Notes under the pieces: model-generated | What the model was told of the DNA's origin: nothing | The model's input: the letters and a program-made list of their open reading frames with translations, nothing else | Databases searched by the model: none | Position numbers and translations under genes: made by a program | Part shown: piece by piece, positions 1,369 through 9,567 of the stretch | Layout of the letters: each line of letters starts with the position of its first letter | How positions within the stretch are numbered: position 1 is the first letter of the stretch | DNA from: a virus | Taxonomy: Duplodnaviria; Heunggongvirae; Uroviricota; Caudoviricetes | Virus record (IMG/VR): IMGVR_UViG_2534681762_000008 | Strand: one strand, 5' to 3' | DNA: 10,151 nt

Positions 1369-1444
1369 GCCGATATAGCTCAGTTGGTAGAGCAGCGCAT
1401 TCGTAATGCGAAGGTCGTAGGTTCGACTCCTATTATCGGCACCA
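1369..1444 (+). tRNA. thrW: tRNA-Thr, anticodon CGT, 76 nt including encoded CCA
   Basis: Sequence GCCGATATAGCTCAGTTGGTAGAGCAGCGCATTCGTAATGCGAAGGTCGTAGGTTCGACTCCTATTATCGGCACCA folds as a cloverleaf: 7-bp acceptor stem GCCGATA/TATCGGC, anticodon stem GCGCA/TGCGC with loop TTCGTAA, T-arm GGTTCGACTCC. Confidence 0.95.
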
Positions 1445-1458
1445 TTTAAATCAATAAG

Positions 1459-2622
1459 TTACACATCATTAGTACCTTCCTTATTTTTTGACTGGGACAA
1501 ATTTGGGACCGATGGGTTTAGGATCGAGTCTATTTGCCGTGCGTGTTCGGTAAGGTGATTAGGTGCAAGGTGAGCATATCGACGAACCATTTCGATAGAC
1601 TCCCAGCCTCCCATTTCCTGTAACACTGACAACGGGACTCCGGCTTGAACCAGCCAACTTGCCCAGGTGTGTCTCAAGTCGTGAAATCTGAAATCATCAA
1701 TACCAGCCCGTCTCAGCGCCGCTTTCCAGGCTGTGTTTGCGTCATACCGCATCTTCCTGACTGTTGGCGCTTTCGTTCCGTCTGGTTTGGTACAGCTTTC
1801 CTTGTACACAAATACCCAACGGTGATGATTCCCGATTTGTTTTTTCAATACGCGACATGCAGTATCATTCAGCGCAACGCCAATTGCGCGGTTTGATTTA
1901 CTCTCTTCCGGGTTTATCCATGCCACCCGGCGCTGCATATCTATTTGTTGCCATTCAAGGTTGATGATGTTCGAGCGTCTTAGGCCTGTTGCCAGTGCAA
2001 ATTCAACAACAGACTTTAATGGCTCCGGACATTCATCAATCAGCCTTTGTGCTTCATGGGGCTCCAGCCAGCGGATCCGTTTATTCTTTGGTTGGGGCAC
2101 TTTAATAATTGGTGCCTTATCCAGCATTTTCCATTCACGCTCTGCGGCTCTTAGTAGGGCCTTTATAAATGAAAGATGCGTAGCCTTCGTTGCAACGGAC
2201 GCTGGTTTTGGCGTGTATTCTGGAACAGGTTTCCCTTTTTTTCTGCATGCTTCTGCCCTGAGTTTCCAGTTTTCCTCATGACGCCGGTTCGTCATTTTCT
2301 GCATTGCTGAATAAATTTTTGATTCAGTAATGTCTCTTAGTTGCATTCCTGCGAAATGTTGAAGCCAGAATCCGATCCGGCTTTTGTCATCGTCCAGTGA
2401 TTTTTTATGTGCTTTCTCTTCAAGCCACCTGACACACGCTTCCTCGAACGTTATATCAGGTATTTCACCAAGTTTGCTGACCCGCCATGCTTCAGCCTTT
2501 AGCTTGTCATGGAGTTCTGTCGCCTGCCTTTTGTCCTTTGTTCCAAGAGACTGTTTAAATCTTTTACCGTTCGGCAATGTGAAACTGGCGTACCATATTT
2601 CACCTCTGCGGAAGAGTGACAT
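1459..2622 (-). CDS. int: Phage tyrosine integrase (P22/SfV-like site-specific recombinase), 387 aa
   Basis: 387-aa ORF starting 15 bp from the tRNA 3' end and reading away from it; N-terminus [22 protein letters not shown] and the C-terminal HDLRHTWAS...VRRYAHL motifs (catalytic R-H-R-Y family) match P22-type integrases from memory; 5' end overlaps xis by 124 nt. Confidence 0.93.
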
Positions 2623-2849
2623 TTTCTTTCCTCTGTTATGCCATCACCCGCGCTCACCTGGACAGTATGCAGCGGAGACTGAAGAGCCGCAATGCAGGCT
2701 TGTCGTGTTGTGAGGTAAGGAGATTTATTCTTAGTGGGATCTTTGCGTGTTGCCTGAAGACGCCCTGTGCGTATCCAGTTAATGGCAGTCGGTCTGGATA
2801 TCTTGAGAAAATGACAGGCCTCATCGAGTGTGAGGCTGTATGGCTCCAT
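2499..2849 (-). CDS. xis: Excisionase (Xis), 116 aa from the internal ATG at 2847-2849
   Basis: Small ORF immediately upstream of and overlapping int; [32 protein letters not shown] resembles P22-type Xis as I recall it. I prefer the internal ATG because it overlaps the stop of the upstream gene in a TAATG junction; the track's longer 144-aa form would overlap that gene. Confidence 0.8.
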
Positions 2850-3154
2850 TATTTCACCTCTTGCTGTGACATTGTTGAAAAATGGATACCAGCTCGTTGC
2901 TGCCAGACGATCCAACCGAGAGTCATATCCCATGCCATGTATTCGTTATCGCCGTTTTTTGCTCTCCGACGATCTACTAAGTCACCGAAACGCTTTTCCA
3001 TGAATAATTCATAAGCTTCGCGTTCATCTGGTTCTACTTCCAGAGATAGGAGTGCGATTTCATAAGCACGGCGCTCAATATCGTCTCGCACGTCAAGGCT
3101 GCTGATACGCTCTTTAATTTCTTTAATCAGTTCTTTGTCGGTAAAAGTGGTCAT
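2849..3154 (-). CDS. Hypothetical phage early-left protein, 101 aa, acidic, no family recognised
   Basis: ORF bounded by TAATG start/stop overlaps on both sides (2847-2851 and 3152-3156), so it is translationally coupled within the leftward operon; family not recognised. Confidence 0.7.
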   Translation of the reverse strand: MTTFTDKELIKEIKERISSLDVRDDIERRAYEIALLSLEVEPDEREAYELFMEKRFGDLVDRRRAKNGDNEYMAWDMTLGWIVWQQRAGIHFSTMSQQEVK

Positions 3155-3516
3155 TATGCTCCAGCCTCCGGTGCTTTTGGCATTACTGCCCAGTGAGTGA
3201 TATTGACGTTTTCAAGGTCCCCGACCTGAAATGTCCATTGCCATTCTCCGGTTTCTTTTTGTCCCCAGGTGTACCAGAGAGAACGCCAGCCAATTAGCCA
3301 GCCTTCTCCGTTAGCATCGAATAACAAAACACTTTCATTTGCTGGTGGCAGTTCAGTTGACACTGGTATTACTTTGTTTTCCTGTGCTGCACATTTAGCT
3401 TCAAGCGCATCGAATTTACGCACTAGGTATTCAGCATCTGTTTTATTTACTTTCAGATCTCGCGGTACACATCTCCCACGAAGAAACCCTTCCATTTCGA
3501 AAACATTCATGCGCAT
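3154..3516 (-). CDS. DUF551-like phage protein, 120 aa
   Basis: C-terminal half (ELPP...VLLFD...GW...W...W...THWAVMPKAPE) resembles the DUF551 signature common in enterobacterial prophage early regions; GGAG lies 8 nt upstream of the ATG; start overlaps the HD gene stop by 10 nt. Confidence 0.75.
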   Translation of the reverse strand: MRMNVFEMEGFLRGRCVPRDLKVNKTDAEYLVRKFDALEAKCAAQENKVIPVSTELPPANESVLLFDANGEGWLIGWRSLWYTWGQKETGEWQWTFQVGDLENVNITHWAVMPKAPEAGA

Positions 3517-4043
3517 TTGCGTAACTCCGATAACTCGTTAAAGCGTTCCATAAACATCCCGTAGACATGGCCCGGTGCCAGTGGAATCACGTTGAACATC
3601 TCTGTTGCCGGGATACCTTCCAGTACAGGCCAGAAAGAGCCATCATCAAGCCCGAGATCGCGGCGTTCGGTTGCCAGCATGATGAGATCGGCATATTTCA
3701 CGGGCGTACTCATAACTGGGGGTAACCCGTATTTCTCACGGATTACGGCGTCTATTTTTTCTTCCATTTGTTTATAGTCAGGAAGAAGGCGTTTCAGTGG
3801 TGCGGGAATGTCCTGGCAATACGCTTCTGTTGCATCATGCATTAACGCTTCAAAAGCAAATTCCTGCGGCACCAGCTGGCTGCAAAGAACCGCATGTTGG
3901 GCGACGCTGTAGAAGTGCGAAAGATGACCGGCAAAGCGACAGATATTTGAAAGGGAAACCGCGATATCGTTAATATCGATGTCGTCTTTATTTATCCTGT
4001 CATAATAAAAATGCTTCCCGGAAAAAGTTTTAATAAATGACAT
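3507..4043 (-). CDS. HD-domain phosphohydrolase, YfbR-like 5'-deoxynucleotidase family, 178 aa from ATG 4041-4043
   Basis: Contains H...HD metal-binding motifs (RFAGHLSH ... ALMHDATEAY) and a later acidic residue in the pattern of small HD nucleotidases; GGAG (complement of 4050-4053) sits 6 nt upstream of the ATG. The track's longer form begins at a GTG at 4068-4070 with no SD. Confidence 0.82.
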   Translation of the reverse strand: MSFIKTFSGKHFYYDRINKDDIDINDIAVSLSNICRFAGHLSHFYSVAQHAVLCSQLVPQEFAFEALMHDATEAYCQDIPAPLKRLLPDYKQMEEKIDAVIREKYGLPPVMSTPVKYADLIMLATERRDLGLDDGSFWPVLEGIPATEMFNVIPLAPGHVYGMFMERFNELSELRKCA

Positions 4044-4199
4044 TTTGTTCTCCACGTATATGCGCTGCACCGCGCTGAATTCTGGTAAAAAAAATCCCTC
4101 ACCATCCGGCGATTATTGAGTAAATTACGTTTCCATAAATGCCCTCGCAGGGGCATTTGCAGTAATGAAATCAGGCAATGAAAGGGTAATGACTCCAAC

Positions 4200-4703
4200 T
4201 TATTGATAGTGTTTTATGTTCAGATAATGCCCGATGACTTTGTCATGCAGCTCCACCGATTTTGAGAACGACAGCGACTTCCGTCCCAGCCGTGCCAGGT
4301 GCTGCCTCAGATTCAGGTTATGCCGCTCAATTCGCTGCGTATATCGCTTGCTGATTACGTGCAGCTTTCCCTTCAGGCGGGATTCATACAGCGGCCAGCC
4401 ATCCGTCATCCATATCACCACGTCAAAGGGTGACAGCAGGCTCATAAGACGCCCCAGCGTCGCCATAGTGCGTTCACCGAATACGTGCGCAACAACCGTC
4501 TTCCGGAGACTGTCATACGCGTAAAACAGCCAGCGCTGGCGCGATTTAGCCCCGACATAGCCCCACTGTTCGTCCATTTCCGCGCAGACGATGACGTCAC
4601 TGCCCGGCTGTATGCGCGAGGTTACCGACTGCGGCCTGAGTTTTTTAAGTGACGTAAAATCGTGTTGAGGCCAACGCCCATAATGCGGGCAGTTGCCCGG
4701 CAT
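4200..4703 (-). CDS. insB: IS1 InsB' (catalytic part of transposase, made as InsAB' by -1 frameshift)
   Basis: Translation ...[64 protein letters not shown]... matches IS1 InsB; it overlaps insA in the -1 frame. Confidence 0.92.
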
Positions 4704-4897
4704 CCAACGCCATTCATGGCCATATCAATGATTTTCTGGTGCGTACCGGGTTGAGAAGCGGTGTAAGTGAACTGCAGTTGCCATGTTTTACGGCAGTGAG
4801 AGCAGAGATAGCGCTGATGTCCGGCGGTGCTTTTGCCGTTACGCACCACCCCGTCAGTAGCTGAACAGGAGGGACAGCTGATAGAAACAGAAGCCAC
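4622..4897 (-). CDS. insA: IS1 InsA (transposition inhibitor / N-terminal part of InsAB' transposase), 91 aa
   Basis: Translation [42 protein letters not shown]... matches IS1 InsA; coordinates fall at the expected offsets inside the 768-bp element. Confidence 0.93.
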
Positions 4898-4952
4898 TGG
4901 AGCACCTCAAAAACACCATCATACACTAAATCAGTAAGTTGACAGCATCACC

Positions 4953-6532: not shown

Positions 6533-6543
6533 GTGGGGTGAAT

Positions 6544-9500
6544 ATGGCAGTAAAAATTTCAGGTGTACTGAAAGACGGCACAGGAAAACCGGTACAGAAC
6601 TGCACAATCCAGCTGAAAGCAAAACGTAACAGTACCACGGTGGTGGTGAACACGCTGGCATCTGAAAATCCGGATGAAGCCGGGCGTTACAGTATGGACG
6701 TTGAGTACGGTCAGTACAGCGTTATTCTGTTGGTGGAAGGATTCCCGCCGTCACATGCCGGGACCATCACAGTGTATGAAGATTCCCGACCCGGTACGCT
6801 GAATGATTTTCTCGGTGCCATGACGGAGGATGATGCCCGTCCGGAGGCACTGCGCCGTTTTGAGCTGATGGTGGAAGAGGTGGCGCGTAACGCGTCCGTG
6901 GTGGCACAGAACACGGCAGCCGCGAAGAAGTCAGCCAGTGATGCCAGCACATCAGCCCGTGAGGCGGCAACCCATGCGACTGATGCTGCAGGCTCAGCAC
7001 GCGCAGCCAGCACGTCAGCCGGACAGGCCGCGTCGTCGGCTCAGTCAGCGACTTCCAGCGCAGGAACGGCATCAACAAAGGCTACTGAAGCATCAAAAAG
7101 TGCTGCCGCTGCAGAGTCCTCAAAAAGCGCGGCAGCTACCAGTGCCAGTGCCGCGAAAACGTCAGAAACGAATGCTGCAGCGTCACAACAATCAGCAGCC
7201 ACTTCTGCATCCACCGCAACTACGAAAGCGTCAGAAGCTGCCACCTCAGCCCGGGATGCGGCGGCTTCAAAAGAGGCGGCAAAATCATCAGAAACGAACG
7301 CATCCTCGAGCGCCAGTAGCGCAGCTTCCTCGGCAACAGCGGCAGGAAATTCCGCGAAGGCGGCAAAAACGTCAGAGACGAACGCCAGGTCTTCTGAAAC
7401 GGCAGCGGGACAGAGCGCCTCGGCTGCGGCAGGCTCAAAAACAGCGGCTGCGTCGTCTGCCAGTGCAGCGTCAACAAGTGCCGGGCAGGCCTCAGCCAGT
7501 GCCACCGCCGCCGGAAAATCGGCAGAAAGCGCCGCATCGTCTGCTTCAACAGCCACAACGAAGGCTGGCGAAGCCACTGAACAGGCCAGCGCAGCAGCGA
7601 GGTCTGCTTCCGCAGCGAAGACATCCGAAACGAACGCGAAAGCGTCGGAAACCAGCGCAGAATCCTCAAAAACGGCTGCCGCATCGTCAGCCAGTTCGGC
7701 GGCGTCATCGGCATCATCTGCGTCTGCTTCAAAAGATGAGGCGACCAGACAGGCGTCAGCAGCGAAGGGTAGCGCCACGACGGCATCCACGAAGGCGACA
7801 GAGGCAGCTGGCAGTGCGACGGCGGCAGCTCAGAGCAAAAGTACGGCGGAATCTGCAGCAACGCGCGCTGAGACAGCGGCAAAACGGGCAGAGGATATTG
7901 CATCCGCCGTGGCGCTTGAGGATGCGAGCACGACGAAAAAGGGGATAGTACAGCTCAGCAGTGCGACCAACAGTACGTCTGAAACGCTGGCGGCAACGCC
8001 AAAAGCCGTTAAGGCCGCGTATGACCTGGCTAACGGGAAATACACCGCACAGGATGCAACGACAGCACAGAAAGGGATAATCCAGCTAAGCAGCGCGACC
8101 AACAGCACGTCTGAAACGCTGGCGGCAACGCCAAAGGCAGTAAAAGCAGCCAATGACAATGCTGAGAAACGTCTGCAGAAAGATCAGAACGGTGCGGATA
8201 TCCCTGGCAAAGACACCTTTACGAAAAATATTGGTGCCTGCCGTGCCTTCGGTGGGTCAGTAAGCACAACAACAGGAAACTGGACGACTGCACAGTTTAT
8301 CGAGTGGCTGGATTCTCAGGGAGCATTTAACCATCCATACTGGATGTGCAAGGGTTCCTGGTCTTATGGCAATAATAAAATCATTACTGATACTGGCTGC
8401 GGTAATATTCATCTCGCCGGAGCTGTCATTGAAGTAATGGGGATAAAGTCAGCGATGACGATCCGCATTACCACACCGACCACCTCCACTGGTGGTGGAA
8501 CAACTAACGCCCAGTTTACCTATATTAATCACGGAACAGATTATTCACCTGGCTGGCGAAGGGACTATAACTCCAGAAATAAGCCAACGGCATCAGAGAT
8601 CGGGGCGTTACCGTCAGGTGGAACAGCAGTATCATCAGTTAATCTGTCTTCAAAAGGTCGGGTAACCGCGCTGACAGACAATACACAGGGGGCAACAGGT
8701 CTTGAGTTATACGAGGTGTATAACAACGGATATCCAACAGCGTATGGAAATATCATTCACCTGAAAGGGATGACAGCCGTTGGCGAAGGTGAGTTACTCA
8801 TCGGCTGGAGTGGTACAAGCGGTGCTCATGCTCCGGCATTTATTCGTTCACGACGGGATACGACCGACGCAAACTGGTCGCCGTGGGCGCAGCTTTACAC
8901 CTCGGCTCATCCTCCTGCAGAGTTTTATCCAGTCGGTGCACCAATCCCGTGGCCATCAGATACCGTTCCGTCTGGTTATGCCCTGATGCAGGGGCAGACT
9001 TTTGACAAATCTGCTTACCCGAAACTTGCAGCGGCTTATCCGTCAGGCGTGATCCCTGATATGCGTGGCTGGACGATTAAGGGCAAGCCCGCCAGTGGTC
9101 GTGCCGTATTGTCTCAGGAACAGGACGGCATTAAATCGCACACCCACAGCGCCAGCGCATCCAGTACGGATTTGGGGACGAAAACCACATCGTCGTTTGA
9201 TTACGGCACTAAATCCACGAATAACACTGGTGCGCATACCCATAGTGTTAGCGGTACGGCTGCTTCAGCCGGTGCACATACCCATTCGATGACATTTGTT
9301 TCAGGTGGTTCCAGTGGTGCTCCGGGAAGTGGATCACCTGATTATTCTAAATACAGTGTTAACACTTCTTCTGCAGGCGCTCATACGCACTCTGTATCGG
9401 GTACTGCTGCAAGCGCAGGTGCACACGCACATACTGTCGGTATTGGTGCTCATACGCACTCCGTTGCGATTGGTTCACATGGACATACCATCACCGTTAA

Positions 9501-9567
9501 CGCTGCTGGTAACGCGGAAAACACCGTCAAAAACATCGCATTTAACTATATTGTGAGGCTTGCATAA
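6544..9567 (+). CDS. stf: Side tail fiber protein (Stf), mosaic, 1007 aa from ATG 6544
   Basis: N-terminus [26 protein letters not shown] matches lambda Stf; long Ala/Ser-rich shaft; conserved [24 protein letters not shown] motif; C-terminus with GAHTHS/HxH repeats and ...[14 protein letters not shown] 6544 is preceded by GGGG 6535-6538 and is preferred over the in-frame GTG at 6538 used by the track. Stop TAA 9565-9567. Confidence 0.9.
7936..8151 (+). repeat. Two copies of an 84-bp segment encoding the conserved tail-fiber motif KGI(V/I)[23 protein letters not shown] (7936-8019 and 8068-8151), 48 bp apart
   Basis: Read directly from the sequence: the two copies are near-identical at the protein level, with several synonymous and few nonsynonymous differences in the DNA. 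Confidence 0.85.

Follow-up and report, generated by a model that had tools for sequence, protein, structure and literature searches.

A yfdR orthologue, encoding a predicted HD-domain nucleotidase, on an IS1-truncated SfIV/SfV-type prophage remnant at the tRNA-Thr beside proA

The DNA analysed here (the window, 10,151 nucleotides in full) is the IMG/VR virus record IMGVR_UViG_2534681762_000008, assigned to the Caudoviricetes, and the feature under study is a gene on its minus strand that we identify as yfdR. A preliminary description had placed at 3507-4043 an open reading frame (ORF) of 178 amino acids. Both the coordinates and the length hold, and the frame is intact, with a product 97% identical to YfdR of Escherichia coli K-12. 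The gene and its ribosome-binding site (RBS) are as follows.

3507..4043, minus strand: yfdR coding sequence, 178 codons plus TGA, uninterrupted; predicted HD-domain 5'-deoxynucleotidase, putatively DnaA-binding by orthology
4050..4053, minus strand: GGAG RBS of yfdR, with a spacer of 6 nucleotides to the ATG; the upstream sequence reads ACGTGGAGAACAAA-ATG

A program-made list of ORFs puts the start further out, at a GTG at 4070; ATG 4043 is the start annotated for yfdR in K-12, in Shigella phage SfIV and in RefSeq relatives. The sequence of the RBS is the same in K-12 and in the O19:H7 strain 730V1.

Over its full length and without a gap, the window protein is identical to K-12 YfdR at 173 of 178 residues, and it is 99.4% identical to the SfIV orthologue (SfIV_32). 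At the nucleotide level the window and K-12 copies of yfdR differ at 24 positions, which fall into 17 synonymous and 5 non-synonymous codons, a pattern that indicates purifying selection on the gene. Given the 97% identity to K-12 and the predominance of synonymous changes, the ORF is a true gene and not a chance frame. The length of 178 amino acids is common to the window copy, to K-12 YfdR (b2361, in the cryptic prophage CPS-53/KpLE1) and to the SfIV orthologue; SfV and SfII have orthologues too. The gene neighbourhood points the same way: yfdS and yfdT follow, at 95-96% identity to their K-12 counterparts, and yfdQ is there as a 3' remnant only. With identity and synteny in agreement, we identify the ORF as an orthologue of yfdR. 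It is a feature already known, since yfdR is a named, annotated and partly characterised gene; a protein identical to that of the window already stands in public collections under the name "5'-deoxynucleotidase", which is also the RefSeq label of yfdR in thousands of genomes.

Between yfdR and the left end of the window lie the genes of a phage left arm and its integration site.

1-1254: proA, at the left end of the window
1369..1444, plus strand: tRNA-Thr(CGU), found with ARAGORN, adjoining proA; attachment site of the prophage
1459..2622, minus strand: tyrosine integrase of the SfIV/SfV type (Pfam Phage_integrase, E=3e-48)
2499..2933, minus strand: xis, an excisionase-type helix-turn-helix gene (Pfam HTH_17, TIGR01764 excisionase, PHROG 2907)
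2849..3154, minus strand: yfdT, 101 amino acids, 96% identical to K-12 YfdT; PHROG 660
3154..3516, minus strand: yfdS, 120 amino acids, DUF551 (Pfam), 95% identical to K-12 YfdS; PHROG 583

The ATG of yfdS overlaps the end of yfdR by 10 nucleotides and the start of yfdT overlaps the stop of yfdS by 1 nucleotide. Overlaps of this kind are usual in phage genes that are coupled in translation, so coupling of the three may occur here. The left arm from 1445 to 4184 matches SfIV at 99.5% and SfV at 99.1% identity; both are serotype-converting phages. The gene order of SfIV is cI, three small ORFs, SfIV_33 (the yfdQ homologue), SfIV_32 (yfdR), SfIV_31, SfIV_30, xis and int, and that of other E. coli prophages at proA/tRNA-Thr is yfdP-yfdQ-yfdR-yfdS-yfdT-xis-int, downstream of a LexA-type repressor. 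The order proA, tRNA, int is likewise found in relatives at the same site. On this evidence yfdR sits on the remnant of a temperate phage of the SfIV/SfV type integrated at tRNA-Thr beside proA. The window shares with the K-12/SfIV group the downstream order of yfdS, yfdT and then an excisionase-type gene, as well as the RBS and a hairpin in the spacer upstream of yfdR; its integration site is that of the SfIV/SfV-type copies, whereas CPS-53 lies at argW. A query of 3100-4250, which takes in part of yfdS, yfdR and the edge of the adjoining IS1 element, was covered over at least 80% of its length in 2,256 of 5,426 complete E. coli genomes, none of which covers more than 69% of the window. Isolated Shigella phages and Stx2c-converting phages carry yfdR too.

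The preliminary description had called the ORF the first surviving gene of a leftward, int-proximal operon, and this is borne out by what lies directly upstream.

4137..4158, minus strand: hairpin in the yfdQ-yfdR spacer, AAAUGCCC-loop-GGGCAUUU, 8 base pairs, without a U-tract; present in the minimum free energy and centroid folds
4171..4184, minus strand: yfdQ 3' remnant, the last three codons plus the stop, cut by IS1 (from the alignment with K-12 and 730V1)
4185..4952, minus strand: IS1 element, 768 base pairs, complete, with insA/insB ORFs co-oriented with yfdR

The edge of IS1 lies 141 base pairs upstream of the start of yfdR, and homology to K-12 and 730V1 starts only at the yfdQ end, so that IS1 takes the place of yfdQ and of everything upstream of it, unlike in intact relatives. 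The ends of the element read GGTAATGACTCC... and, as the reverse complement, ...GGTGATGCTGTC, with 17 of 23 positions matching, and in relatives its product is annotated as an IS1 family transposase. The sequences flanking it, CAATGAAAG and CAGATACAG, differ, and a 9-bp target duplication is thus absent, which argues that this IS1 marks a deletion or recombination junction and not a simple insertion. On the far side of IS1 stands a C-terminal piece of a lambda-type J tail-tip gene, followed by lom and by two tail-fibre genes, a long one for the fibre itself and one for its assembly. We therefore read the prophage remnant as a composite, produced by IS1-mediated deletion or recombination, in which an SfIV/SfV-type left arm has been joined to a lambda-type J fragment. 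The junction has cost the prophage yfdP, yfdQ, the repressor, nearly every late gene and the promoter region. The same junction is present in the NCBI draft assembly GCA_000355115.2, reached by looking up the exact protein; an exact-match scan of the GTDB species-representative genomes gave no match to it.

The spacer between IS1 and yfdR was also examined for signals. A consensus scan gave no promoter-like site between the two, the sole one on this strand lying inside the end of IS1 (4945-4918). The hairpin at 4137-4158 is conserved in CPS-53 of K-12 and in the O19:H7 prophage of 730V1, and a G-to-A change in the window shortens its stem. A weak stem followed by a T-run (4112-4099) was flagged as a candidate terminator, but the T-run is not conserved in K-12 and the candidate was rejected. 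The fold of the whole yfdQ-yfdR spacer is no better than that of shuffled sequence (z = -0.17), and with the hairpin lacking a U-tract, the spacer gives no evidence of a functional terminator.

The HD domain of the protein, which the preliminary description had read from a visible H...HD motif, is solid. YfdR carries H50, the pair H69-D70 and a downstream D119, as expected of the HD superfamily. Conservation was scored over 50 diverse representatives, 38-68% identical to the query: H50 is present in all 50, H69 and D70 in 49 each and D119 in 48. The conservation extends to E73 (48 of 50), D78 (49), K84 (50) and R36 (49), and F37 is Phe in 46 and Tyr in the other 4. None of the substitutions that separate the window protein from K-12 YfdR (R16K, D23V, Q92R, V160A and E170D, in which V160 is the window residue) falls on a motif residue. 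An AlphaFold2 model built with 25 homologues has a mean pLDDT (predicted local distance difference test score) of 89.9 and shows the all-alpha fold of the HD superfamily. H50 is assigned as the first metal histidine because it aligns with a histidine of Atu1052, an HD protein of Agrobacterium tumefaciens, and is invariant in the family; together with H69, D70 and D119 it would hold a divalent metal.

Profile searches place the protein at some distance from the E. coli nucleotidase YfbR. YfdR scores 25.2 bits against the Pfam YfbR-like family (PF12917), for which the gathering score is 25.9, and 20.5 bits against the NCBIfam YfbR equivalog NF003009, for which the cut-off is 122; it thus falls below both curated cut-offs and is not a member of the YfbR equivalog family. 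Pfam HD_3 gives 17.5 bits. Among the sampled relatives 45 of 50 match Pfam YfbR-like at E<=0.01, and PHROG 318, labelled 'deoxyribonucleoside 5' monophosphate phosphatase', matches YfdR with E=1e-109. The only clear sequence match among solved structures is Atu1052 (PDB 2gz4), with E=1e-13 for single-sequence phmmer and 5e-30 for the family profile. Atu1052 is chromosomal, has no assigned function and is 25% identical to YfdR, and it provides evidence of fold and none of function. YfbR is reached with the family profile at E=2e-4; Foldseek alone was too insensitive to recover YfbR from YfdR.

The alignment by hhalign of the family profile with YfbR has a probability of 94.8%, and in it a 22-residue stretch pairs with AFEALMHDATEAYCQDIPAPLK; in the extended alignment VKQAD pairs with VKYAD. 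By this alignment H69-D70, E73, D78, K84 and D119 of YfdR correspond to H68-D69, E72, D77, K83 and D137 of YfbR, of which we take E72 to be catalytic and D77 to contact the sugar. The spacing from R36-F37 to H50 is as expected, and R36-F37 would presumably match R18-W19 of YfbR, which we understand to contact phosphate and base, but hhalign leaves that N-terminal part unaligned. More generally, YfbR (PDB 2paq/2par; PF12917) and YfdR share the core h-h-H-D-A-x-E-x-x-x-G/Q-D-x-P-x-P-x-K and the later V-K-x-A-D. They differ in that identity is only 18%, and in that YfdR has an extra N-terminal beta-hairpin segment, a much lower affinity for nucleotides and a phage-borne gene. PMC4776307 assigns both proteins to one reaction class. 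The earlier term 'YfbR-like' nucleotidase was therefore right for the fold, the active site and the reaction class and wrong for orthology, YfdR being a distant relative of YfbR. We conclude that the window YfdR is a small, mostly helical HD-domain protein and a predicted metal-dependent phosphohydrolase, with the activity of this allele assigned by orthology.

The family is large. A search of a 50%-clustered library returned 22,949 cluster representatives at E<=1e-3, and a 90%-clustered library gave 4,758 proteins at E<=0.001. Several representatives (9 listed) of 350-415 amino acids match the query in two separate stretches, as tandem or fused double-HD YfdR/Atu1052 domains. A distant homologue, gp202 of Bacillus phage Tsamsa (locus 3992-4573), lies between dihydrofolate reductase and thymidine kinase and near DNA polymerase. 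This nucleotide-metabolism setting contrasts with the accessory early-left setting in enterobacterial temperate phages. From the presence of homologues in large lytic phages whose hosts are unrelated, we infer that the family began with catalysis and that DnaA binding was added in a particular lineage.

The K-12 orthologue has been characterised in part. Noguchi & Katayama 2016 (PMC4776307) describe YfdR as a structural homologue of YfbR with an HD domain, whose function 'remains elusive'. The passage of that paper citing Zimmerman et al. 2008 states that YfdR dephosphorylates nucleotides with an affinity much below that of YfbR. Purified YfdR binds domains I-II of DnaA in a manner dependent on Phe46, DnaA pulls YfdR out of cell extracts, and YfdR moderately inhibits both DiaA-DnaA and DnaB-DnaA binding (PMC4776307); of the two proteins, only YfdR has been shown to bind DnaA (PMC4776307). 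Over-initiation mutants are suppressed by multicopy yfdQRT or yfdQRS, which also inhibit initiation in the wild type; extracts inhibit initiation in vitro as well, and every gene set that inhibited initiation held both yfdQ and yfdR (PMC4776307). The authors note that ORFs 29-31 of SfV encode YfdQRST homologues and suggest that the proteins ancestrally acted much as lambda P does, inhibiting host initiation (PMC4776307). Later reviews and papers repeat this account.

Other proteins act on DnaA in comparable ways. DiaA, SirA of B. subtilis and Dps are modulators of initiation that bind domain I of DnaA, and lambda P is an early phage protein that inhibits host DnaA, via domain III and not domain I (PMC4776307 and a review). 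YfdR differs from all four in that an enzyme fold is used for binding and in that its effect in vivo needs YfdQ together with YfdS or YfdT. To our knowledge, there is no relationship of sequence or fold between YfdR and DiaA, SirA, Dps or lambda P.

Taking the locus and the published work together, we think it highly probable that the gene is an orthologue of yfdR whose product is a low-affinity HD nucleotidase and a DnaA binder, that it lies on a remnant of an SfIV/SfV-type phage, and that this copy is silent or driven only by read-through from IS1. By the precedent of K-12, YfdR would turn nucleoside 5'-monophosphates into nucleoside and phosphate with an affinity far below that of YfbR, and would bind DnaA domain I at the Phe46 patch in competition with DiaA and the DnaB helicase. 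In an intact phage an early-left promoter would transcribe yfdR leftward with yfdP, yfdQ, yfdS and yfdT after induction. YfdR would most likely help to stop host initiation at oriC and so favour phage replication, and halted host rounds may leave DnaB and precursors available to the phage. Perhaps the trimming of the deoxynucleoside monophosphate (dNMP) pool by the phosphatase is an extra, or an ancestral, contribution. What the preliminary description had right was the HD domain, its reaction class and where the gene lies; it had missed the name of the gene and the function connected with DnaA and oriC.

Several points weigh against this interpretation. N-terminal to the HD motif, the alignment with YfbR cannot be relied on. 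The affinity, as PMC4776307 gives it in citing earlier work, is low, so the physiological substrate may be something other than dNMPs. Deletion of yfdQRST in K-12 had no phenotype in normal growth and affected neither initiation nor hydroxyurea resistance, and the authors concede that the effect of overexpression might be an artefact (PMC4776307). In a metabolic-engineering study yfdR was deleted as a reported cytidine monophosphate (CMP) phosphatase, and the yield of CMP in the engineered strain was not raised. For this allele, activity and DnaA binding are predicted from the orthologue, and transcription from the sequence.

The state of this particular copy is a separate matter. Because the early promoter region is deleted and no promoter-like site stands between IS1 and yfdR, expression here would depend on read-through from IS1. 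Because yfdQ is lost and inhibition was seen only with gene sets that contain it, a phenotype of initiation inhibition is not expected from this locus. We therefore take the copy to be probably silent, unless IS1 read-through expresses it, and without a demonstrable role in the host. Whether it is a non-functional relic, carried along silently in a decaying prophage until it is inactivated, is a question on which we put even chances. Losses at the IS1 junction and the lack of a promoter-like site downstream of it speak for a relic, as do the many truncated copies of yfdR in databases; on the other side, yfdR keeps an intact ORF and RBS, the coupled genes yfdS and yfdT are likewise whole, and the co-oriented IS1 could supply read-through transcription. 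Codon 160 (3564-3566) also seemed to speak for decay, encoding Val in the window and Ala in 46 of the 50 relatives, in K-12 and in SfIV. However, intact thrW prophages that have yfdP, yfdQ and the repressor carry this allele too, so V160 is a polymorphism and was ruled out as a sign of decay. Such a relic would be a matter of how this locus stands and would not conflict with the explanation given above.

The preliminary description had also suggested that the protein could reshape the nucleotide pool of the host, for which there is no evidence at this locus. In a stricter form, YfdR would be a pure nucleotide-pool enzyme that acts on dNMPs or some other nucleotide while the phage develops, and its binding to DnaA would be an artefact of overexpression, which we regard as possible but rather unlikely. 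The full catalytic constellation is conserved across the large family described above, homologues in large lytic phages are unlikely to need contact with a DnaA of the E. coli type, and the setting of the Tsamsa gene and the possible artefact conceded in PMC4776307 both agree with a pool enzyme. There is also an example in phage T5, whose Dmp is a deoxynucleoside 5'-monophosphatase, an early and dispensable gene product that acts on dNMPs and can alter deoxynucleoside triphosphate pools and affect virulence; it carries the same functional label as YfdR, and homologues of YfdR have the same PHROG-based product name. Dmp was considered as a possible HD protein and homologue and rejected (hhalign probability 0.1%; PHROG 415 and not 318), which leaves an analogy without sequence evidence. 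Against a pure pool enzyme stands the direct binding of purified YfdR to DnaA, specific and by way of Phe46 (PMC4776307). The explanation is plausible and overlaps with the dual role of nucleotidase and DnaA binder.

Since the reported affinities for dNMPs look too weak to be physiological, another substrate for the YfdR/Atu1052 branch is conceivable. The true substrate could be an unrecognised signalling nucleotide or a damaged one; in temperate phages the chemistry could be coupled to DnaA binding, making YfdR a nucleotide-sensing switch that halts host replication on induction, or the protein could be a counter-defence enzyme. We hold this to be a long shot. A role as a counter-defence or exclusion factor proper, in which YfdR destroys a nucleotide immune signal or an intermediate of a depleted pool, or excludes superinfecting phages, as the preliminary description had proposed from the location of the gene, is very improbable: yfdR does lie in the accessory early-left region beside other genes of unknown function, and nucleotide pools are a known battleground of phages and defence systems, but PADLOC-DB gave no match at E<=0.01 for YfdR, YfdS or YfdT, the published literature that was searched reports no such phenotype, the K-12 yfdQRST deletion was neutral in both reported assays, and the characterised proteins closest to it in structure hydrolyse nucleotide phosphates and are not cyclic-nucleotide phosphodiesterases.

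With yfdR already on record as a gene, the finding itself adds little that is new, and the role of YfdR in the phage life cycle is better studied in an intact phage than in a remnant truncated by IS1. The interest that remains lies in the role of the large YfdR/Atu1052 branch, in the link between catalysis and DnaA binding, and in the need for YfdQ together with YfdS or YfdT.

Some further observations concern the rest of the window and its relatives. The longest ORF for the integrase (387 amino acids) and the longest for the excisionase overlap by 124 nucleotides, and RefSeq relatives have an integrase of 372 amino acids. The PHROG 2907 excisionase profile covers residues 29-144 only of the xis ORF, whose SfIV counterpart is annotated as an excisionase. 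Given the overlap, the 372-residue RefSeq integrase and the partial PHROG match, the true starts of int and xis are probably internal to these ORFs.

At the same proA/tRNA-Thr site in the related strain E. coli Ec-U11, a remnant of this same prophage is followed, beyond stf-tfa, by an AVAST type 2 (Avs2) anti-phage gene (locus positions 14664-19118). From this Avs2 gene it appears that the right end of the site can hold defence cargo; the window ends before that point.

The tail-fibre ORF of the window (6538-9567, plus strand, 1009 amino acids) has a low-complexity segment of about 370-380 residues rich in Ala, Ser and Thr, and His-rich repeats of the 'GAHTHS' type towards its C-terminus. Long ORFs at 6938-7948 (in another plus-strand frame) and at 7041-7790 and 7220-7903 (on the opposite strand) look like composition shadows of the tail-fibre ORF.

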